Source: a virus
DNA length: 21,002 bases
Strand: one strand, 5' to 3'
Virus genome (UHGV): UHGV-0195968
The notes beneath the pieces were generated by a model. It worked only from the letters and a program-made list of their open reading frames with translations. It was not told where the DNA came from and did no database searches. Shown piece after piece: positions 1-10,613 of the stretch (its first letter is position 1; every line of letters starts with the position of its first letter). A program made the position numbers and the translations under genes.

Positions 1-2
1 TC

Positions 3-146
3 GCAGCCCTCCAGGCAAAGATTGATGCGCAAACAGCTTCAGTAGTTGGCTTGCAACAGGCGATGCACGAAGCGGTGAACGATGCTCTTCGCAATGCGCT
101 CAAGCCAGGCGGCATCCTCTGGAATACACGGTCGCGAGGAATCTGA
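3..146 (+). CDS. 3' end of an upstream ORF (last 47 codons, product unknown)
   Basis: Frame 3 is open from the window edge to TGA at 144-146 (translation ...AALQAKIDAQTASVVGLQQAMHEAVNDALRNALKPGGILWNTRSRGI*). It ends 11 nt before the next start, with GGGAGG in between. No recognisable motif. Confidence 0.3.
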   Translation, partial: AALQAKIDAQTASVVGLQQAMHEAVNDALRNALKPGGILWNTRSRGI

Positions 147-157
147 CGGGAGGTTTT

Positions 158-1615
158 ATGCAGGTCACTATTGATGGTGTCCCATACGCTCCCGCCAGCG
201 TCGTTTCATCACGGATCGGCATTGCCATTTCGACGCATCAGCGCGCAGACGTTTTAAAGCGAGCACTCGAACAGCACATGAAGCATCTTCCCGCCGGTGC
301 GCTGGTGGTGGTAGTCGATGATGGTTCAAAACCTGCAGCGGTAGTTCCACACGGCGTGCAGCTGCTTCGCCATGAAACATCACTCGGCATTGTTGCGTCG
401 AAGAACGCCAGCCTGACAGCCCTGATGGATGCCGGGTGTGAGCATCTGTTTTTATGGGATGATGACGCCTGGCCTATCGCTGATAACTGGCACCTCCCTT
501 ACATCGAATCACCAGAGCCGCACCTGGCTTACCAGTTTCTCGATCTTGCTGGCACGAACAAGCTGAATGACCTTTCGGTGCTTTACCGTGACGATCAGCA
601 TGTGGCGTACACCGGGCAGCGCGGCGTGATGCTTTATTACCACCGCAGCGCCATCGAGAAGGTAGGCGGATTCGATCCGGTTTATGGTCGCGGCATGTAC
701 GAGCACAGCGACCTCGCCTTGCGCATCCATAACGCAGGACTGACTACGTGGGCGTACGCTGATGTCGTCGGTTCAGAAAAGCTGATCCATTCTCTCGATG
801 AGCATGAGGCCGTAGAGCGTTCAGTGCCGAGGCCCGACCGCCAGGCGCTGGTGGAACGTAACGTGAAGATCCACAACGAACGACGTGATACCGGCTTTAC
901 CGGTTACGTTGAATACCGGAAGCAGCGCGACGTGGTAATCACAACGTTGCTCACCAGCCAGCCTGACCCGCAGCGCGGTACGAAAATGGCGGCCTCGCCT
1001 GAGATGCTGGCTAAATGGGCCGCATCACTCCGGCAGTGTGGACGTATCGCGCTGGTGGATGAACTGCAGACGCCACCGGCAGATGTTGAGTTGTACCGCG
1101 TTCCTGAGGTGAAGATGAATGTCTACTTCCGGCGCTGGCTGCATATCTGGCAGCACCTGCGAGATCACCCTGAATACCGGTTCGTCTGGTGTACTGATGG
1201 TACCGATGTCGAAATGCTCCGCGCACCGTGGGAAGAAATGCAGCCCGGGAATGTTTACGTCGGTTCTGAACCGAAGACATACGCCGACACCTGGGCGAAA
1301 CAGAATCATCCTGAGCGTATCTATCAGGAATTCATTGAAGCGCACCGCGGCGATGTGATGCTTAACGCTGGCCTGCTGGGTGGCACCCGCGCTGATGTAA
1401 TGGCGTTCGCTCACGGCATCATCCGTCTTTACTACCGGATCGAAAGTTATCGATTCTGGAAGAAAGAACAGGCTGGCGCCGCGGTGGGGGATATGATCGC
1501 TTTTGGCATTGTTGCTAAATCGCTTGGCGATCGCATTGTCACCGGCCCGCGTATCCACACAGTTTTTAAGACTGATGGTATTGGCAAAGAATGCGCCTGG
1601 TTTAAACACAAATAG
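158..1615 (+). CDS. Two-domain glycosyltransferase: N-terminal GT2 (GT-A fold) domain plus a C-terminal domain that may be a second GT-A-like domain
   Basis: 485-aa ORF with RBS GGGAGG 5 nt upstream of the ATG. GT2 signature order: IGIAISTHQR (first beta-strand), VVVVDDGS, LFLWDDD (DxD), EKVGGFDPVYGRGMYEHSDLALRIHNAG (GT2 C-terminal motif). No obvious transmembrane segment. The C-terminal ~230 aa carry VVITTLLT and FVWCTDGTD, reminiscent of GT8/nucleotide-diphospho-sugar transferase folds. Confidence 0.6.
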   Translation: MQVTIDGVPYAPASVVSSRIGIAISTHQRADVLKRALEQHMKHLPAGALVVVVDDGSKPAAVVPHGVQLLRHETSLGIVASKNASLTALMDAGCEHLFLWDDDAWPIADNWHLPYIESPEPHLAYQFLDLAGTNKLNDLSVLYRDDQHVAYTGQRGVMLYYHRSAIEKVGGFDPVYGRGMYEHSDLALRIHNAGLTTWAYADVVGSEKLIHSLDEHEAVERSVPRPDRQALVERNVKIHNERRDTGFTGYVEYRKQRDVVITTLLTSQPDPQRGTKMAASPEMLAKWAASLRQCGRIALVDELQTPPADVELYRVPEVKMNVYFRRWLHIWQHLRDHPEYRFVWCTDGTDVEMLRAPWEEMQPGNVYVGSEPKTYADTWAKQNHPERIYQEFIEAHRGDVMLNAGLLGGTRADVMAFAHGIIRLYYRIESYRFWKKEQAGAAVGDMIAFGIVAKSLGDRIVTGPRIHTVFKTDGIGKECAWFKHK

Positions 1616-1621
1616 GCTGAT

Positions 1622-2131
1622 ATGAAAAAGACCAGAACTTTCAGTGAAAGATTCTGGGAAAAGGTCGTTGTTGCTTCTCCAGATGAATGCTGGATCTGGA
1701 ATGCGGCTAAGAGAAAGAGTCCTATAGGCGGTGGGAGGTATTTATTTTACGGGCATTTGAAAGCTGGAGTTACTGCTGGCGGGCCTGGAAAAATGATTCT
1801 TGCACACAGAGCTTCATGGGAACTTAGCAACGGACCTATCCCAGACGGATATTTGATTGACCATACCTGCCATAACACTCTTTGCGTCAACCCAAAACAT
1901 CTTCGAATAGCAACACCAAAACAAAACGCTGAAAACAGGCAACGTCACTCCTCTGCGTCAGGATTTCGTGGAGTTACTTGGAATCGGGATATGAAGAAAT
2001 GGTGTGCTCATTATAAAGAGCATGGTACCCGGCATCACCTTGGTTACTTTGACTGTAAGCATGAAGCTGCTGAGGTTGCACGACGAGCCCGTAATGAGGT
2101 GTTTACCCATAATGATGCAGACAGAGATTAA
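1622..2131 (+). CDS. HNH endonuclease with AP2 DNA-binding domain (free-standing homing-endonuclease-like gene)
   Basis: 169-aa ORF. HNH core DHTCHNTLCVNPKHLRIATPKQNAEN; AP2-like segment SGFRGVTWNRDMKKWCAHYKEHGTRHHLGYFDCKHEAAEVARRAR. GC is clearly lower than the flanks (about 43% in the first 100 nt by hand count, against flanks that look high-50s%). Sits 6 nt after the stop of the upstream gene, and its 3' end overlaps the start of the next gene. Confidence 0.7.
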   Translation: MKKTRTFSERFWEKVVVASPDECWIWNAAKRKSPIGGGRYLFYGHLKAGVTAGGPGKMILAHRASWELSNGPIPDGYLIDHTCHNTLCVNPKHLRIATPKQNAENRQRHSSASGFRGVTWNRDMKKWCAHYKEHGTRHHLGYFDCKHEAAEVARRARNEVFTHNDADRD

Positions 2132-2702
2132 GTTTGTTGTGGTTGGCCATCACTCTCGCATAGGTCATGCGCAACGACTTGCCGCGCTGCTGGATGCTCA
2201 TCTGCTTATTGATGACGGTAACCGCGGCGCGAACTGGAATCATCGTCGCGCTATCGAATGGGCTGCTGAGCAACCTTGCCGGGTAGTGGTGTTGGAAGAA
2301 GACGCGCTTCCTGTGCAGGGCTTCACCGATAAGGTAACTGAATGGCTGGTGCGCTTCCCTGACGACATGCTGAGCTTTTATCTCGGTACCGGCCGACCGC
2401 CGCAGTATCAGAAAGAGATTGCCGGAATGCTGGTGGATGCGGATCGCGTCTGTGGTGACCACATCGTATTAAGCAAACTGATTCACGGCGTATGTTATAG
2501 CCCTCCTCGGGGAAGTTTGGCGCGCATGCTCAGTACATGGAACAAAACGCTGGCAGCTGATTACGCTGTCGGTGAGGCATTCGGTGGTCGGGTGATTTAT
2601 CCGTGTTACTCGCTGGTGGATCACGCTGACCTCCAGACGGTTGAGCGTCACCCTGACAACGAGCCGAGGACAGAACGCCGCCGCGCATGGAGGCTGGCAT
2701 AA
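2112..2702 (+). CDS. Glycosyltransferase-like protein, GT25-like (LPS-core-type GT-A) by motif pattern
   Basis: Taken from the internal ATG at 2112 (MMQTEIKFVVVGHH...) of the 2004..2702 ORF, because the upstream extension would run through the HNH-AP2 gene in another frame. Motif order resembles GT25: N-terminal beta-strand IKFVVVGH, GANWNHRRAIEWAAE, acidic VVVLEEDA. No transmembrane segment seen. The family assignment is from memory of the GT25 pattern, not from a search. Confidence 0.45.
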   Translation: MMQTEIKFVVVGHHSRIGHAQRLAALLDAHLLIDDGNRGANWNHRRAIEWAAEQPCRVVVLEEDALPVQGFTDKVTEWLVRFPDDMLSFYLGTGRPPQYQKEIAGMLVDADRVCGDHIVLSKLIHGVCYSPPRGSLARMLSTWNKTLAADYAVGEAFGGRVIYPCYSLVDHADLQTVERHPDNEPRTERRRAWRLA

Positions 2703-2746
2703 GCTGTTGTTTATCCCATCCTTCCTCACTTTGAGCACCGTTACGC

Positions 2747-3100
2747 ATGGAGACTGTCATGAACAAAGAGCCCCGCGTATATGGCAGCCGATGGGATAAG
2801 GCCCGTCTGCGTTTCCTGCAGCAGCACCCACTATGTGTGATGTGCGAGCAGCAGGGGCGGATTACCCCAGCAACGGTGGTTGACCATATCGAGCCCCACA
2901 AACTCAAAGATGCGCTTAAGTCAGGTAACCCGCTGGCCATATCGAAAGCACAGCTCCTGTTCTGGAGTAAAGAGAACTGGCAGCCACTGTGTAAAGCGCA
3001 TCATGACTCAACGAAACAGAGGATGGAGAAGAGCGGCGCGGTAATAGGCTGTGATGCCAATGGCTACCCGCTCGATCCTGCGTCTCACTGGAGCACGTAA
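2747..3100 (+). CDS. Phage HNH endonuclease, packaging-associated (HK97 gp74-like position)
   Basis: 117-aa ORF with HNH motifs VVDHIEPHK and NWQPLCKAHHDSTK and several Cys (CVMCEQ). Lies immediately upstream of the terminase genes. The true start may be the second ATG at 2759, which has GGAG upstream. Host-like GC. Confidence 0.75.
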   Translation: METVMNKEPRVYGSRWDKARLRFLQQHPLCVMCEQQGRITPATVVDHIEPHKLKDALKSGNPLAISKAQLLFWSKENWQPLCKAHHDSTKQRMEKSGAVIGCDANGYPLDPASHWST

Positions 3101-3303
3101 TGAAAGACCTCAGCATTGAATACCGCAATGGAAAATTCGTTCGCCTGGTGATTGATGGCGTGGAGATGAAGGACGTGACATCCATTCAGTTCTCGCACGC
3201 TGTAGGGCAGGAGATGCCGACGGTGACCATTTCAGGTCATGTTGTCTCCGGGCATCGGAAAGGCGATCAGAAACTCGAACAGGTAGACAAACATTCGGCA
3301 TAG
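3100..3303 (+). CDS. Hypothetical small protein (67 aa)
   Basis: ATG overlaps the HNH stop (TAATG), suggesting translational coupling. No recognisable motif, and no RBS was identified beyond the coupling. Confidence 0.35.
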   Translation: MKDLSIEYRNGKFVRLVIDGVEMKDVTSIQFSHAVGQEMPTVTISGHVVSGHRKGDQKLEQVDKHSA

Positions 3304-3486
3304 CGCGGCGGCGGCAAGTCGATTACCTATCATGTGAAATCATTTCAAATGCAACGATATCAAATGAGAATGAATCGCATCAGGGCAGGGGGGGGATCAA
3401 ATCTTCAAAACCTTTGCCCCAAATGACCGCCGCCAAAGTTTGATTTTAACGCTAACCCGATTTTTTTAGTTTTAAGGTGTTGACAT
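3304..3486. other. Putative cos / terminase-recognition region (non-coding)
   Basis: 183 bp without an ORF between the HNH-associated genes and terS. Contains four copies of (T/C)CAAAT(G/C) at 3345, 3360, 3397 and 3419; a G8 run at 3388-3395; and an inverted pair GGCGGCGG (3307-3314) / CCGCCGCC (3427-3434). In HK97-like phages cos lies between the HNH gene and terS. Confidence 0.35.
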
Positions 3487-3972
3487 ATGGCAGATAAACG
3501 AACCCGTTCCGACAGTTCGGCGGCAGCGGTTCAGGCCATGAAAAATGCAGCTGTGGACACCATCGATCCGCCGTCCCATGCAGGTTTGGAGAAAAAAGCC
3601 GAACCATTCTGGCATGACAATATCAGATCGAAAGCTCTGGACAGCTGGACGCCTGCCGACCTGCTGGCCGCCGTAGAACTGGCAAATAATCAGCTCTATA
3701 TCACCGTTTTACGCAAGGATTTACGCAAAGAAGAGCGTATACGCGGGGAGGAGCGAGACGAAGGCCTTATCAAAGACCTCCGCAAGCAAATTGTTGAGCT
3801 ACAACGAACTATCCTGGCTCAGCGCCGCGACCTCCAGATCCATTCACACGCAACCAACGGCGAAAGTCGCGACCAGAAGAAACGTAATCAGAACGATCGT
3901 GATGCACGGAATACCAAAAACGGACATCAGGACCAGGACGACAACCTGATCGCCTTTCCCAAACACGGATAA
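3487..3972 (+). CDS. terS: Terminase small subunit
   Basis: 161-aa ORF directly upstream of the large terminase gene. RBS AAGGTG 8 nt upstream. Highly charged C-terminal half. Assignment rests on position and size, typical of HK97-like packaging modules. Confidence 0.7.
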   Translation: MADKRTRSDSSAAAVQAMKNAAVDTIDPPSHAGLEKKAEPFWHDNIRSKALDSWTPADLLAAVELANNQLYITVLRKDLRKEERIRGEERDEGLIKDLRKQIVELQRTILAQRRDLQIHSHATNGESRDQKKRNQNDRDARNTKNGHQDQDDNLIAFPKHG

Positions 3973-3978
3973 ACGACT

Positions 3979-5493
3979 ATGACGCGAGGTGAGCGTGTAA
4001 TAGCGTTCATTGAGCGCTTTTGCATTGTGCCGGAAGGCAAGCTTCTCGGTAAGGCCATGCGGCTTGACCCATTTCAGAAAGAGTTCATCCTGGCGGTTTA
4101 CGACAATCCAGTCGGTACCGATAAAGCGATACTGAGCATCGCCCGCAAAAACGGCAAGACGGGGCTGATAGCCGGCATCCTGCTGGCGCACCTGGTGGGG
4201 CCAGAAGCGGTACAGAATACCCAGATCGTCAGCGGTGCTCTGAGCCGGGAGCAGGCATCTATCGTTTTCAACCTCGCGGTGAAGATGGTCAACCTGAACC
4301 CAAAATTGCAGGAGATTGTGCACATCACGCCCAGCGGCAAAAAGCTGATCGGGCTGCCGTGTAATGTCGAATATAAGGCGTTATCTGCTGAGGGTAAAAC
4401 CACACACGGACTGTCGCCTGTTCTGGCGATTCTGGACGAAACCGGGCAGGTAAGGGGGCCGCAGGATGATTTTATCGATGCGATCACCACAGCCCAGGGC
4501 GCGCATGAAAATCCGCTGCTGATAGTTATCAGCACTCAGGCGGCGAATGATGCCGATCTGTTAAGCATCTGGATTGATGATGCGGTCAAATCGAAAGATC
4601 CGCACATTGTCTGCCACGTTTACGAAGCGCCAAAAGACGCTGATATCGGTAAGCGGGAATCCTGGCTTGCCGCGAACCCGGCGTTAGGAACCTTCAGATC
4701 CGAAAAAGACATGGCGCGCCAGGCAGAAATGGCCGCGCGAATGCCGAGCTTCGAGAACACCTTCCGCAACCTCAACCTGAACCAGCGCGTTTCCACCGTA
4801 TCCCCGTTTATCTCACGTAGCGTGTGGGAGCTGTGCGGCGACATGCCGGTTAATACGCCGAGGAAGTGGTATGCAGGGCTGGACCTGTCAGCCAGGAATG
4901 ACTTAACGGCGCTGGTTATCGCTGGTGAAGCAGAGGATGGCGTCTGGGATATCTTCCCGTTCTTCTGGACGCCTCAAAAAACGCTGGAGGCACGGTCCAA
5001 AACAGACCGAGCGCCATATGACGTATGGGCCAGAGAGGGGCTTTTGCGCACCACGCCCGGCGCATCGGTCGATTACTCATTCGTGGTTGCCGATATTGCC
5101 GAAATAATCGGTGATTTCGATCTTACCTCAATGGCGTTCGACCGGTGGCGCATTGACCAGTTCAGGAAAGAGGCTGATGACATAGGCCTGAGCCTTCCTT
5201 TGGTTGAGTTCGGCCAGGGCTTCAAGGATATGGGCCCGGCAGTGGACACCCTTGAATCGCTGATGCTTAACGGGCGGGTAAGGCACGGCATGCACCCGGT
5301 ATTAACCATGTGCGCCGGGAACGCGGTGATCGTTAAAGATGCTGCCGGCAACCGTAAGCTGGATAAATCCAAAGCAACGGGCCGTATTGATGGCATGGTC
5401 GCAATGACGATGTCCGTTGGTGCTGCTAATGGGGAAGTTACCGAACAAGGTGGTGACTTCGATGACTTCATTTTCCGACCGCTGAGCATGTGA
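3979..5493 (+). CDS. terL: Terminase large subunit
   Basis: 504 aa. Walker A-like ARKNGKTG and Walker B-like VLAILDETG in the N-terminal ATPase region, with a C-terminal nuclease-like region (RIDGMVAMTMSVGA). Stop overlaps the portal start. Confidence 0.9.
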   Translation: MTRGERVIAFIERFCIVPEGKLLGKAMRLDPFQKEFILAVYDNPVGTDKAILSIARKNGKTGLIAGILLAHLVGPEAVQNTQIVSGALSREQASIVFNLAVKMVNLNPKLQEIVHITPSGKKLIGLPCNVEYKALSAEGKTTHGLSPVLAILDETGQVRGPQDDFIDAITTAQGAHENPLLIVISTQAANDADLLSIWIDDAVKSKDPHIVCHVYEAPKDADIGKRESWLAANPALGTFRSEKDMARQAEMAARMPSFENTFRNLNLNQRVSTVSPFISRSVWELCGDMPVNTPRKWYAGLDLSARNDLTALVIAGEAEDGVWDIFPFFWTPQKTLEARSKTDRAPYDVWAREGLLRTTPGASVDYSFVVADIAEIIGDFDLTSMAFDRWRIDQFRKEADDIGLSLPLVEFGQGFKDMGPAVDTLESLMLNGRVRHGMHPVLTMCAGNAVIVKDAAGNRKLDKSKATGRIDGMVAMTMSVGAANGEVTEQGGDFDDFIFRPLSM

Positions 5494-6767
5494 TGGAAGA
5501 ACCTAAATACACAATTGACCTTCGAACCAATAACGGCTGGTGGGCAAAGCTTCAGTCCTGGTTTGTCGGCGGGCGTTTAGTGACCCCAAATCAGGGCTCA
5601 CAGACGGGGCCTGTTTCGGCCCACGGACACCTGGGCGATTCATCCATTAACGATGAACGGATACTGCAAATTTCGACTGTGTGGCGCTGCGTGAGCCTGA
5701 TTTCAACGCTCACGGCATGCTTACCGCTTGATGTCTTCGAAACAGATCAGAATGACAACCGTAAAAAAGTGGATTTGAGCAATCCGCTGGCACGACTGCT
5801 GCGCTACTCACCGAATCAGTACATGACCGCCCAGGAATTCAGGGAGGCCATGACAATGCAGCTCTGTTTCTTCGGTAACGCGTATGCACTGATTGACCGC
5901 AACAGCGCGGGTGACGTGATCAGCCTTCTCCCGCTTCAGTCAGCCAGTATGGATGTGAAACTTGTCGGAAAAAAAGTGGTTTATCGCTATCAGCGAGACA
6001 GCGAATACGCCGACTTTTCGCAGAGAGAGATTTTTCACCTTAAAGGCTTCGGATTCACGGGGCTGGTCGGCCTGTCACCAATTGCTTTTGCCTGTAAATC
6101 GGCAGGGGTGGCGGTGGCGATGGAGGATCAGCAACGTGATTTCTTTGCTAATGGCGCCAAGTCTCCGCAAATTCTCATGACCGGAGACAGAGTTCTAACC
6201 GAACCACAGCGAAACCAGCTTGAAGAGAACTTTAAAGAGATCGCCGGCGGGCCTGTAAAAAAACGCCTCTGGATTCTGGAAGCGGGATTTACCACCTCAC
6301 CTATCGGCGTAACGCCACAGGATGCCGAGATGATGGCGTCCCGAAAATTCCAGGTTAGCGAACTGGCGCGATTCTTTGGCGTACCGCCTCACCTTGTCGG
6401 CGATGTTGAGAAGTCAACGAGCTGGGGCTCAGGCATCGAGCAGCAAAATCTCGGGTTTCTACAGTACACCCTACAGCCCTATATCTCCCGGTGGGAAAAC
6501 AGCATTCAGCGTTGGCTTATCCCGGCTAAGGATGTTGGCCGGATTCACGCTGAGCATAATCTTGATGGTCTGTTAAGGGGCGATTCTGCATCCCGCGCAG
6601 CCTTTATGAAGGCAATGGGCGAATCTGGGCTCCGCACCATTAACGAGATGCGCCGCACTGACAACATGCCTCCATTACCTGGTGGCGATGTGGCAATGCG
6701 ACAGGCGCAATACGTGCCGATCACCGACTTAGGAACCAACAAAGAGCCCCGTAATGACGGGGCTTAA
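5490..6767 (+). CDS. Portal protein (HK97 family)
   Basis: 425 aa. Start (GTG 5490 or ATG 5493) overlaps the terL stop. Position between terL and the prohead protease, and size typical of HK97-family portals. Confidence 0.85.
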   Translation: MMEEPKYTIDLRTNNGWWAKLQSWFVGGRLVTPNQGSQTGPVSAHGHLGDSSINDERILQISTVWRCVSLISTLTACLPLDVFETDQNDNRKKVDLSNPLARLLRYSPNQYMTAQEFREAMTMQLCFFGNAYALIDRNSAGDVISLLPLQSASMDVKLVGKKVVYRYQRDSEYADFSQREIFHLKGFGFTGLVGLSPIAFACKSAGVAVAMEDQQRDFFANGAKSPQILMTGDRVLTEPQRNQLEENFKEIAGGPVKKRLWILEAGFTTSPIGVTPQDAEMMASRKFQVSELARFFGVPPHLVGDVEKSTSWGSGIEQQNLGFLQYTLQPYISRWENSIQRWLIPAKDVGRIHAEHNLDGLLRGDSASRAAFMKAMGESGLRTINEMRRTDNMPPLPGGDVAMRQAQYVPITDLGTNKEPRNDGA

Positions 6768-6772
6768 TTTTT

Positions 6773-7462
6773 ATGGGGGCCGTAATGCCTGAAATTGTAA
6801 AAACGCTCTCTTTCGACGAGACAGAAATCAAATTCACTGGTGACGGAAAGCAGGGGATCTTTGAAGGATATGCCTCTGTCTTTAATAACACTGATTCCGA
6901 TGGCGACATCATTCTTCCCGGGGCGTTTAAAAACGCACTGGCAAACCAGACCCGAAAAGTGGCGATGTTTTTCAACCACAGGACTTGGGAATTGCCGGTT
7001 GGAAAATGGGACAACCTGGAAGAAGACCAAAAAGGGCTGTATGTGCGCGGACAGCTAACGCCAGGGCACAGCGGGGCCACTGATCTGAAAGCTGCAATGC
7101 AGCACGGTACGGTTGAGGGCATGTCGGTTGGCTTTTCCGTTGCAAAAGATGATTACACCACCATTCCCACCGGTCGAATTTTCAAGAATGTCCAGGCACT
7201 GCGCGAAATAAGCGTCTGCACCTTCCCGGCCAACGAACAGGCTGGCATTGCAGCCATGAAAAGTGTCGACGGCATTGAAACGATCCGTGATGTGGAGAAC
7301 TGGCTGAGGGATTCAGTCGGCCTCACCAAATCACAGGCAGTTGGGCTAATTGCCCGGTTTAAGTCAGCGATTCGGAGCGAGTCCGAGGGCGACGGAAACG
7401 AAGCACAAATCAAAGCTCTGCTTCAGAGCATCCAATCTTTCCCTTCTAACTTAGGTAAATAA
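6773..7462 (+). CDS. Prohead maturation protease (HK97 gp4-like, peptidase S78)
   Basis: 229 aa with the characteristic GYASVFNNTDSDGDIILPGAF segment. Located between portal and major capsid genes. The start may be the ATG at 6785, which has a GGGGG run upstream. Confidence 0.85.
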   Translation: MGAVMPEIVKTLSFDETEIKFTGDGKQGIFEGYASVFNNTDSDGDIILPGAFKNALANQTRKVAMFFNHRTWELPVGKWDNLEEDQKGLYVRGQLTPGHSGATDLKAAMQHGTVEGMSVGFSVAKDDYTTIPTGRIFKNVQALREISVCTFPANEQAGIAAMKSVDGIETIRDVENWLRDSVGLTKSQAVGLIARFKSAIRSESEGDGNEAQIKALLQSIQSFPSNLGK

Positions 7463-7464
7463 TT

Positions 7465-8622
7465 ATGTCTGAACTCGCTCTCATTCAAAAAGCTATCGAA
7501 GAATCCCAGCAGAAAATGACCCAGCTTTTCGATGCGCAGAAAGCAGAAATCGAAAGCACGGGCCAGGTTTCCAAACAGTTGCAGTCCGATCTGATGAAAG
7601 TACAGGAAGAGCTGACCAAATCCGGCACTCGTCTCTTCGATCTGGAGCAGAAACTGGCATCCGGCGCTGAGAATCCTGGTGAGAAGAAATCCTTCTCTGA
7701 ACGGGCTGCTGAAGAGCTTATTAAGTCATGGGACGGTAAACAGGGCACCTTCGACGCGAAGACGTTTAACAAGTCTCTCGGCAGTGACGCTGATTCTGCT
7801 GGATCACTGATCCAACCTATGCAGATGCCTGGCATCATCATGCCTGGCCTGCGCCGTCTGACCATCCGTGACCTGCTGGCTCAGGGCCGCATTTCCAGCA
7901 ACGCTCTGGAATATGTGCGTGAAGAGGTGTTTACCAATAACGCCGATGTGGTGGCTGAGAAAGCGCTTAAGCCAGAATCGGATATCACCTTCAGCAAGCA
8001 GACCGCGAACGTGAAAACCATCGCGCACTGGGTACAGGCGTCACGTCAGGTTATGGACGATGCACCAATGTTGCAGTCATACGTCAACGGCCGTCTGATG
8101 TATGGTCTGGCACTGAAGGAGGAAAACCAGCTGCTGAATGGCGACGGCACCGGGGATAACCTGGAGGGGCTGAACAAAGTGGCTACCGCCTACGACACCT
8201 CGCTGAACGTTTCCGGTGACACCCGCGCTGACATCATCGCTCATGCTATTTACCAGGTGACCGAGTCTGAGTTTAGCGCTTCCGGTATCGTCCTGAACCC
8301 GCGCGACTGGCACAACATCGCGCTGCTGAAAGACAACGAAGGTCGTTACCTCTTCGGTGGTCCTCAGGCGTTTACCAGCAACATCATGTGGGGCCTGCCA
8401 GTGGTTCCGACTAAGGCGCAGGCCGCCGGTACCTTTACCGTAGGCGGTTTTGATATGGCCTCACAGGTGTGGGATCGCATGGATGCCACCGTGGAAGTCA
8501 GCCGTGAAGACCGCGATAACTTCGTGAAAAACATGCTGACCATCCTGTGCGAAGAACGCCTGGCGCTGGCGCACTATCGCCCGACGGCAATCATCAAGGG
8601 CAGCTTCTCTTCTGGCTCATGA
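7465..8622 (+). CDS. Major capsid protein, HK97 fold with N-terminal delta (scaffolding) domain
   Basis: 385 aa. The N-terminal ~100 aa are coiled-coil-like (LIQKAIEESQQKMTQLFDAQKAEIESTGQ...), followed by the capsid body. Follows the protease with a 2-nt gap. A terminator-like hairpin lies downstream. Confidence 0.9.
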   Translation: MSELALIQKAIEESQQKMTQLFDAQKAEIESTGQVSKQLQSDLMKVQEELTKSGTRLFDLEQKLASGAENPGEKKSFSERAAEELIKSWDGKQGTFDAKTFNKSLGSDADSAGSLIQPMQMPGIIMPGLRRLTIRDLLAQGRISSNALEYVREEVFTNNADVVAEKALKPESDITFSKQTANVKTIAHWVQASRQVMDDAPMLQSYVNGRLMYGLALKEENQLLNGDGTGDNLEGLNKVATAYDTSLNVSGDTRADIIAHAIYQVTESEFSASGIVLNPRDWHNIALLKDNEGRYLFGGPQAFTSNIMWGLPVVPTKAQAAGTFTVGGFDMASQVWDRMDATVEVSREDRDNFVKNMLTILCEERLALAHYRPTAIIKGSFSSGS

Positions 8623-8655: not shown

Positions 8656-8982
8656 ATGGCGATAGATGTTCTGGATGTAATTTCCCTCAGTCTGTTTAAG
8701 CAGCAGATTGAGTTTGAGGAAGACGACAGGGACGAGCTGATCACGCTGTACGCCCAGGCCGCTTTTGACTACTGCATACGCTGGTGCGATGAACCAGCAT
8801 GGAAGGTTGCGGCTGATATTCCTGCCGCCGTTAAGGGCGCCGTTCTGCTTGTCTTTGCAGACATGTTTGAACACCGGACGGCACAAAGCGAAGTGCAGCT
8901 TTATGAGAATGCAGCCGCCGAACGCATGATGTTCATTCATCGCAACTGGCGCGGTAAAGCCGAATCAGAGGAGGGCTCCTGA
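8656..8982 (+). CDS. Head-tail connector protein (HK97 gp6-like)
   Basis: 108 aa, the same length I recall for HK97 gp6. First gene after the capsid gene. Stop overlaps the next start (TGATG). Confidence 0.7.
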   Translation: MAIDVLDVISLSLFKQQIEFEEDDRDELITLYAQAAFDYCIRWCDEPAWKVAADIPAAVKGAVLLVFADMFEHRTAQSEVQLYENAAAERMMFIHRNWRGKAESEEGS

Positions 8983-10169: not shown

Positions 10170-10613
10170 ATGTCTGCACTTTATGAAAAATCGCAGCTGA
10201 CGAAGATCCTTATTTCCTCCCTGCCAGCCACCAAAGAAACGATGGATTCCGCAACCTTCCTCGATCTGAGTTGCACCATCAAAGAAATTCAGTTCACCGG
10301 TGGTCAGAAGCAGGATATCGACGTAACAACACTTTGCTCTACCGAGCAGGAGAACATCAACGGCCTGCCTTCTCCGTCAGAAATCTCTCTGTCCGGCAAC
10401 TTCTACAAGAATCCGGCGCAGGACGCCTTGCGTGAGGCCTATGACAACGATACGACCTACGCTTTCCAGGTTATCTTCCCGTCCGGCAAGGGCTTTAAGT
10501 TCCTGGCTGAAATCCGCCAGCACACCTGGTCTTCAGGTACCAACGGCGTAGTGGCGGCAACGTTCTCCCTGCGCCTGAAAGGTAAGCCTGAAAACATCGA
10601 GTCTGGCTCCTGA
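10170..10613 (+). CDS. Major tail tube protein
   Basis: 147 aa. RBS AGGAG 7 nt upstream. Position directly upstream of the G / G-T chaperone pair. Confidence 0.65.
   Translation: MSALYEKSQLTKILISSLPATKETMDSATFLDLSCTIKEIQFTGGQKQDIDVTTLCSTEQENINGLPSPSEISLSGNFYKNPAQDALREAYDNDTTYAFQVIFPSGKGFKFLAEIRQHTWSSGTNGVVAATFSLRLKGKPENIESGS

Follow-up and report, generated by a model that had tools for sequence, protein, structure and literature searches.

A two-enzyme glycosyltransferase cassette in the late region of an HK97-like phage and its predicted link to C-terminal Gly-Ser on virion proteins

Introduction

Virion glycosylation was reportedly demonstrated in the mycobacteriophages Che8, Corndog and Myrna by Freeman et al. 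2023 (Cell Host Microbe), where phage-encoded transferases are said to put O-linked glycans on the C-terminus of the capsid and tail tube subunits. To our knowledge, and in the literature searched, it has been demonstrated only for mycobacteriophages; no report of virion glycosylation in HK97-like, enterobacterial or other Gram-negative-host phages was found in that literature. Che8 gp110 and Corndog gp38 are described as essential transferases for capsid glycosylation (PMC12363180). O-glycosylated mycobacteriophage capsids and tails are summarised in two further papers (PMC11256854, PMC11652166), and virion glycosylation is stated to shield the particles from antibodies (PMC11256854, PMC12363180, PMC11652166). 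Here we analyzed a stretch of 21,002 nucleotides of the virus genome UHGV-0195968 (the window), which makes up the late region of a phage or prophage of the HK97 type (Hendrixvirinae), with its genes on the + strand. Near its start it carries a cassette of two glycosyltransferase genes, GT485 and GT196, separated by a homing endonuclease gene. On sequence comparison, this cassette is probably the enterobacterial HK97-like member of the mycobacteriophage kind of virion-glycosylation system.

158-1615, + strand: GT485, two-domain GT-A glycosyltransferase of 485 amino acids (aa), phrog_1579
1622-2131, + strand: homing endonuclease with HNH_3 and AP2 domains, 169 aa (Pfam, PHROG, PADLOC)
2112-2702, + strand: GT196, GT25-like GT-A glycosyltransferase of 196 aa, phrog_854

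A preliminary description of this DNA had singled out the two transferases and knew of no described function for such a module at this locus. That statement is not supported, as published HK97-like phages have this cassette among their annotated genes and it is homologous to mycobacteriophage virion-glycosylation genes that occupy the same genome position.

Relationship to the mycobacteriophage systems

Phage genomes were searched with both proteins by tblastn. Mycobacteriophages made up 568 of the 609 matching records for GT485, and Mycobacterium phages 662 of the 719 for GT196. GT196 was 32% identical to Che8 gp110 over 192 aa (BLASTP, E = 9e-22) and aligned with Corndog gp38, the VVLE(D/E)DA and SLVDH motifs being common to both. 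GT485 matched the large transferase of many cluster F phages, Che9c and Sparky over its full length at 42-47% identity (43% for Rita, cluster F), and Myrna gp234 at 36.7%. Che8 gp108 and gp109 were ruled out as its counterparts, since no BLAST homology was found. These Che8 partner enzymes are a GT2 plus methyltransferase protein (gp108) and a GT2 protein (gp109), whereas the window cassette has no methyltransferase domain.

The position in the genome is also the same. At the right end of Che8, the transferases gp108-110 are followed by gp111, gp112 (HNH), the cos/genome end and the terminase; the order in the window is GT485, GT196, HNH, terminase. In the window a further transferase, GT485, lies directly upstream of GT196, the gp110/gp38-type enzyme. 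The Che8, Corndog and Myrna system and the window further share soluble enzymes, and capsid and tail tube subunits that end in Gly-Ser (the Corndog tail ends in DS). They differ in that the host of the window phage is a Gram-negative enterobacterium and the phage is HK97-like.

The two glycosyltransferases

The first protein of the preliminary description (485 aa, + strand) was recovered in the open reading frame (ORF) 158-1615 with all three of its motifs, VVVVDDGS, LFLWDDD and EKVGGFDPVYGRGMYEHSDLALRIHNAG. The family phrog_1579, labelled 'glycosyltransferase', matched it over its full length (E = 3e-252). The AlphaFold model (pLDDT 95.6) has a GT-A fold with conserved DD (54-55) and DDD (101-103). 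Its N-terminal domain (about aa 18-254) is GT2/GT27-like, with VVDD (aa 53-55), DDD (101-103) and EH (182-183), and the remainder (about aa 255-485) forms a second GT-A domain with DPQR (270-273), D347..D350, NAG..GG (403-409) and a terminal HK. This two-domain architecture is kept down to about 30% identity in a family of 246 representative clusters at E < 1e-30. Against Pfam Glycos_transf_2 (PF00535) the window protein scored 19.7 bits, under the gathering cut-off of 23.3. In a family-wide Pfam scan, however, Glycos_transf_2 was matched by 68 of 93 diverse members (best E = 2.5e-10), and Glyco_transf_7C was found in the N-terminal domain of 63. The combination of these two domains is typical of polypeptide N-acetylgalactosamine (GalNAc)-transferases.

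For the second protein, the motifs IKFVVVGH and VVVLEEDA were found in the ORF 2004-2702 (+). Its homologues are 196 aa long and start at MMQTEIKF, so the gene was placed at 2112-2702 and not at the full ORF. The protein carries VVLEEDA (E62, D64) and SLVDHAD (D170, H171) and is matched by phrog_854, 'glucosyltransferase' (E = 4e-70). The window protein had no Pfam match at E ≤ 0.1; Glyco_transf_25 (PF01755) was matched by 8 of 29 aligned homologues, all of them from actinophages (best E = 1e-7). The AlphaFold model has a GT-A fold (pLDDT 83, core above 90). The top Foldseek matches were Mimivirus R655, COLGALT1 and ppGalNAc-T2, with LH3 also near; the protein-glycosylating GT-A enzymes COLGALT1, ppGalNAc-T2 and LH3 are thus among its nearest structural matches.

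The maximum 19-residue Kyte-Doolittle mean was 1.32 for GT485 and 0.92 for GT196, hence neither has a membrane-like segment. Both window proteins retain every residue that is invariant in their families, the DxD-type motifs among them. Each transferase has many hundreds of database homologues which, together with the PHROG family matches, show that the two are not chance ORFs. The profile and structure searches that had been proposed for them identified both as GT-A glycosyltransferases. The earlier assignments therefore stand: the proteins are soluble; the first is probably of GT2 type, with a GT-A fold and Glycos_transf_2 matches across its family; the second is GT25-like, given the PF01755 matches of its mycobacteriophage homologues and COLGALT1 among its best structural matches; and together they hold three glycosyltransferase domains, two in GT485 and one in GT196.

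Comparison with other known enzymes gave likeness at the level of the fold. When PDB chains were searched by sequence, both transferases returned noise only (APOBEC3G, proteasome subunits, E > 0.05), and a profile of 93 GT485 homologues returned GT2-like matches for the N-terminal domain and none for the C-terminal domain. The best whole-chain structural matches of GT485 were Pasteurella heparosan synthase 2 and E. coli K4 chondroitin polymerase, which likewise consist of two tandem GT-A domains in one soluble chain. Identity to these was 10-12%, and whereas they polymerise glycosaminoglycans, there is no sign of polymer synthesis here. The polypeptide GalNAc-transferases (GT27) combine Glycos_transf_2 and Glyco_transf_7C as the N-terminal domain family of GT485 does. 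The likeness of GT27 enzymes and COLGALT1 (GT25) to the window enzymes is confined to the fold (8-13% identity), and no lectin domain is present here; the proposed acceptor would be a C-terminal Ser, as opposed to the mucin repeats or hydroxylysine of the GalNAc-transferases and COLGALT1. Chlorella virus PBCV-1 A64R is another virus-encoded glycosyltransferase linked to capsid glycosylation, but it has no sequence relationship to the window enzymes and belongs to a giant virus of eukaryotes whose glycans are N-linked and atypical.

C-terminal Gly-Ser on capsid and tail tube proteins

The candidate substrates in the window were assigned as follows.

7465-8622, + strand: major capsid protein, HK97 gp5-like, 385 aa (Pfam Phage_capsid, E = 2e-56)
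8656-8982, + strand: gp6-like head-tail connector, 108 aa (Pfam Phage_connect_1)
10170-10613, + strand: tail tube (major tail) protein, 147 aa (Pfam Phage_TTP_11 and Phage_tail_3)

The capsid protein, which matches the HK97 capsid chains 3qpr (E = 2.7e-248) and 1ohg in the PDB, terminates in ...KGSFSSGS-stop and the tail tube protein in ...PENIESGS-stop. The corresponding proteins were collected from 79 viral-contig loci found through the large terminase and 80 found through GT196, plus published genomes, and Gly-Ser (GS) ends were counted by locus class after identical rows had been removed. Mycobacteriophage genomes and one actinophage-like, high-GC contig compare as follows.

Che8: transferases present; capsid end KTGS; tail end SDGS
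Corndog: transferases present; capsid end LVGS; tail end KGDS
Sparky: transferases present; capsid end GGGS; tail end GGGS
Che9c: transferases present; capsid-position protein end ETAS; tail end GDGS
L174 (contig, GC 0.68): GT485 homologue present; capsid end PAGS; tail tube end GGGS
L5: no transferases; capsid not GS; tail tube not GS
Bxb1: no transferases; capsid not GS

Where both transferases were present, the capsid protein ended in GS in 65/66 cases and the tail tube protein in 53/55, against 5/18 and 1/12 where no transferases were detected. All five GS capsids of the transferase-free class were ≥97% identical to HK97 gp5, and its lone GS tail tube came from a contig cut just upstream of the terminase, on which the cassette region is not covered. 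The both-enzyme loci are diverse: their capsids include a 403-aa type that is 37-45% identical and is paired with a large terminase of about 28% identity, and their tail tube proteins are of at least five types, with the ends ESGS/EPGS/DPGS, ASGS/QQGS, QPGS and TPGS/VAGS. GS is constant at these loci and the residues ahead of it are variable. When all + strand ORFs were taken without prior choice, 175 of 1750 ended in GS at cassette loci (8 of 742 at cassette-free loci), which makes GS the commonest C-terminal dipeptide at cassette loci. The GS-ending proteins were confirmed by Pfam as members of the Phage_capsid and tail-tube families. Phages of two bacterial phyla share the GS end on capsid and tail tube proteins of unrelated families.

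The window tail tube protein is 93% identical (BLASTP) to residues 1-145 of HK97 gp12 (L085:6733-7437). It lacks the C-terminal Ig-like domain of gp12 and stops at that point with ...ESGS. In contig L174 (5185-8373), the head module contains the GT485 homologue, immediately behind the major capsid gene.

Several observations weigh against a link between the enzymes and the motif, or limit it. The cassette-free phages HK97, HK022, HK544 and mEpX2 have capsids (97% identical) that still end in SGS, so the capsid tag is not strictly tied to the enzymes; this end may be left over from a cassette that the HK97 lineage lost recently, or may have another role. The gp6 proteins of the same four phages end in EEGS without a cassette. 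The gp6-like connector of the window ends in ...AESEEGS-stop, and because EEGS occurs with and without transferases alike it does not discriminate; the connector might serve as a third substrate, or its end might be a relic or coincidental. Among loci with the cassette, L093 has a tail tube protein that keeps the Ig domain and ends in CTLTVN, and L161 has a capsid ending in GKAP and a tail protein ending in VTVA. The capsid-position protein of Che9c, with its ETAS end, does not carry GS either. L174 has a GT485 homologue and no detectable GT196 homologue, which limits the case for GT196 as the priming enzyme. The loci are related to one another, and the counts given above are therefore not independent events and overstate independence. 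Finally, Freeman et al. 2023 reportedly found little evidence of glycosylation in the wider phage population.

Three minor observations concern the same proteins. Among relatives, the tail tube protein apparently has one of two endings, an Ig-like domain or the two residues GS. The capsids of HK97, HK022 and HK544 (L085, L086, L088) end in ...FSSGS and that of mEpX1 in ...FSAD. The next protein after the GT485 homologue in L174, of 236 aa, had no Pfam match and did not resemble GT196 by BLAST; it may be a different partner enzyme.

Genome context and distribution of the cassette

As the preliminary description had stated, the packaging module follows the transferases directly, with a gp74-like HNH gene and then the small and large terminase. 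A simple scan found no sigma-70-like promoter in positions 1-4000 of the window (3.1 expected) and no convincing terminators flanking the cassette, whose genes are tightly spaced or overlapping. A self-contained moron was ruled out on these grounds. A role in anti-phage defence was set aside, as PADLOC gave no match for either transferase.

The same cassette occupies the same slot, from the lysis genes to gp74, in mEp390, HK542, ENT39118, ECP1, Fostie, LMessi and AsXd-1. The published HK97-like cassette phages have 88-91% nucleotide identity to the window and the same gene order. In mEp390 the cassette is gp54-56, likewise with an HNH gene between the transferases. Its genes carry annotation labels only in these phages, and no functional study of the HK97-like cassette was found in the literature searched. 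HK97, HK022, mEpX1, mEpX2 and HK544 do not have it, and the slot of HK97 holds a KilA-N gene in place of the transferases. The survey of related phages that the preliminary description had suggested thus found a variable slot between the lysis genes and gp74. GT196 occurs without GT485 in HK633 and L168.

The cassette is rare in complete E. coli genomes: 25/5426 matched any part of window positions 1-3400, and among the matches listed only two (ETEC1749 and UMNK88) covered both transferase genes. The cassette is common in prophages of Enterobacter, Citrobacter, Klebsiella, Cronobacter and Salmonella. Homologues of both enzymes were also seen in the jumbo Serratia/Klebsiella phages MN871453.1 and MN871451.1 (about 300 kb, records without annotation), at 55% identity for GT485 and 42% for GT196.

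Weighing of alternative explanations

The preliminary description had listed three roles without ranking them: modification of lipopolysaccharide (LPS), glycosylation of virion proteins and glycosylation of phage DNA. Of these, the virion-protein role is now strongly favoured, because homology, synteny, the Gly-Ser association, late-operon placement, solubility and the structural matches all point to it, and the other two are disfavoured. Enzymes that modify a host envelope glycan from the cytoplasmic side (LPS core, enterobacterial common antigen or a capsule precursor), as lysogenic conversion or superinfection exclusion, would fit the naming of GT25 after LPS-core galactosyltransferases in the Pfam description, the frequent action of GT2 enzymes on lipid-linked glycans, and the generic NCBI names of the homologues. 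The slot is moreover variable in the manner of a moron, as the KilA-N gene of HK97 illustrates, but the cassette does not count as an autonomous one, since it has neither a promoter-like site nor a terminator at its flanks. Both proteins are preserved (30-47% identity) in mycobacterial phages, and the envelope of mycobacteria has none of these acceptors. An envelope role would also not account for the C-terminal GS that capsid and tail tube proteins show almost invariably where the cassette occurs; we regard it as quite improbable. Seroconverting gtrABC operons encode the flippase GtrA, a membrane-anchored GtrB and a polytopic GtrC, lie near int/att and are expressed in lysogens. The cassette had already been set apart from these, rightly, since it consists of only two soluble enzymes, has no membrane-like segments, and lies beside the terminase in the late operon with no promoter-like site.

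Glycosylation of a modified base of the phage DNA as anti-restriction is suggested by the 'glucosyltransferase' label of phrog_854, by the position next to the packaging genes, and by weak matches of 17/93 GT485 family members to Pfam TAGT (PF20691, TET-associated glycosyltransferase; best E = 2.5e-5). One of these members was inspected; its match fell under the curated cut-off (16.3 vs 27.5 bits) and lay in the generic nucleotide-binding part of the N-terminal domain, and the lead was put down to general GT-A likeness and dropped. The window and mEp390 1-8500 and 32724-40029 showed no gene for a hydroxymethylase, for TET/JBP or for any other base modification, and in Che8, Corndog and Myrna the homologues are linked with the glycosylation of proteins, which together make the DNA reading very improbable indeed. 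It is also conceivable that the cassette is active and the GS termini are unrelated to it, with other sites or proteins (tail tip, fibres) being glycosylated, or that the cassette is a decaying passenger. The cassette-free HK97-type capsid and gp6 that keep GS, and L161, which has the cassette and no GS-ending structural protein, speak for such a view. Against it stand the intact family-invariant residues and the size of the family, as well as GS being by far the top C-terminal dipeptide at cassette loci and recurring across unrelated protein families and two phyla. This explanation is accordingly judged unlikely.

Proposed mechanism

We consider it likely that the cassette is a late-expressed system for O-glycosylation of virion proteins at a C-terminal Gly-Ser tag. 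The genes lie in what appears to be the late operon, with the lysis cassette on one side and the gp74-HNH/terminase genes on the other. They are tightly spaced and have no promoter or terminator of their own, so the enzymes would be produced along with the structural proteins. As soluble proteins they would draw on host nucleotide sugars in the cytoplasm; the cassette itself contains no sugar-synthesis genes. A short O-linked glycan would be built on the C-terminal Ser of the capsid (...SSGS-COOH) and tail tube (...ESGS-COOH) proteins, with the terminal Gly-Ser as the putative recognition tag, and we infer that the terminal Ser is the actual O-glycosylation site. GT196 most likely adds the first sugar to the protein and the GT485 domains would extend it, because GT196, the enzyme in common with the Che8 and Corndog systems, is present in HK633 and L168 where GT485 is absent; a three-step order in which the two GT485 domains each add a further sugar is our guess. 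About 415 capsid copies, and the tail tube copies, would each bear a surface glycan. On the tail tube, the tag would take the place of the Ig-like decoration domain of HK97 gp12. Candidate benefits are a shield against antibodies or proteases, altered adhesion to surfaces or mucus, and virion stability.

A more tentative proposal, which we think rather less probable than its converse, is that a bare C-terminal Gly-Ser-COOH might be a minimal portable tag, recognised on unrelated capsid families, on at least five tail tube families and perhaps on the gp6 connector, such that phages could gain or lose surface glycans by a swap of a two-residue tail, for instance instead of an Ig-like domain. If so, two genes would provide tag-directed cytoplasmic O-glycosylation in E. 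coli, of use for glycan-shielded therapeutic phages or glycoproteins.

Were the proposed O-glycosylation borne out, virion glycosylation would extend to phages of Enterobacter, Citrobacter, Klebsiella, Cronobacter, Salmonella and E. coli, and HK97-like phages would provide the first glycosylated virions known from Gram-negative hosts. HK97 itself, the textbook model of how capsids assemble, belongs to this group; its capsid protein is already SGS-ended and has solved structures. The group would offer a genetically easy test bed for enzyme recognition of C-terminal Gly-Ser. The proposed glycosylation would also explain the alternation of the tail tube protein between an Ig-like domain and a two-residue tag, and could open a route to glycan-coated therapeutic phages against Gram-negative pathogens. 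The near-invariant C-terminal Gly-Ser gives a directly testable prediction.

Homing endonuclease between the transferase genes

The cassette had been described as a cluster of two genes. Both transferases were confirmed, and a third gene between them (1622-2131) had been overlooked. Its protein matches Pfam HNH_3 (E = 2e-14) and AP2 (E = 1e-8) and phrog_3593, and was called 'homing endonuclease' (HEase) by PADLOC. The gene has a GC content of 0.45 (flanks about 0.56), and the 20 nt at its 3' end are shared with the start of GT196. Most related loci do not have it, and different HNH genes (34-54% identity) are found at the same junction in mEp390, AsXd-1, L006 and L023. For these three reasons (low GC, absence from most related loci and other HNH genes at the same spot) it is regarded as a mobile insertion, and it takes no part in the glycosylation function. 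The junction between GT485 and GT196 is suggested to be a recurrent homing site.

Other genes of the window

The remaining features near the cassette are listed below.

1-145, + strand (frame 3): last part (3' end) of an ORF that lies upstream of GT485, after the lysis genes
2747-3100, + strand: HK97 gp74-like HNH endonuclease, packaging accessory (Pfam HNH, phrog_2323)
3100-3303, + strand: 67-aa ORF, phrog_10282 (unknown function)
3487-3972, + strand: small terminase (Pfam/PHROG assignment)
3979-5493, + strand: large terminase (Pfam/PHROG assignment)

The region of HK97 gp74 has 91% nucleotide identity to the window, and the gp74-like gene marks the downstream edge of the variable slot that contains the transferase cassette. 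The terminase genes are followed on their 3' side by portal, protease, capsid, connectors, tail tube, chaperones, tape measure and tail tip. The 67-aa ORF between the gp74-like gene and the small terminase is kept in HK97-like phages. A homologue of the truncated ORF at 1-145, found in Aeromonas phage AsXd-1 (L002:3253-4146, 297 aa), has a Phage_Tail_Tip domain (PF09327), and over its last 112 nt the ORF shares 95-98% identity with the 3' ends of genes annotated as 'tail tip fiber protein' or DUF1983 in E. coli prophages. This places a J-tip-like gene outside the tail module.

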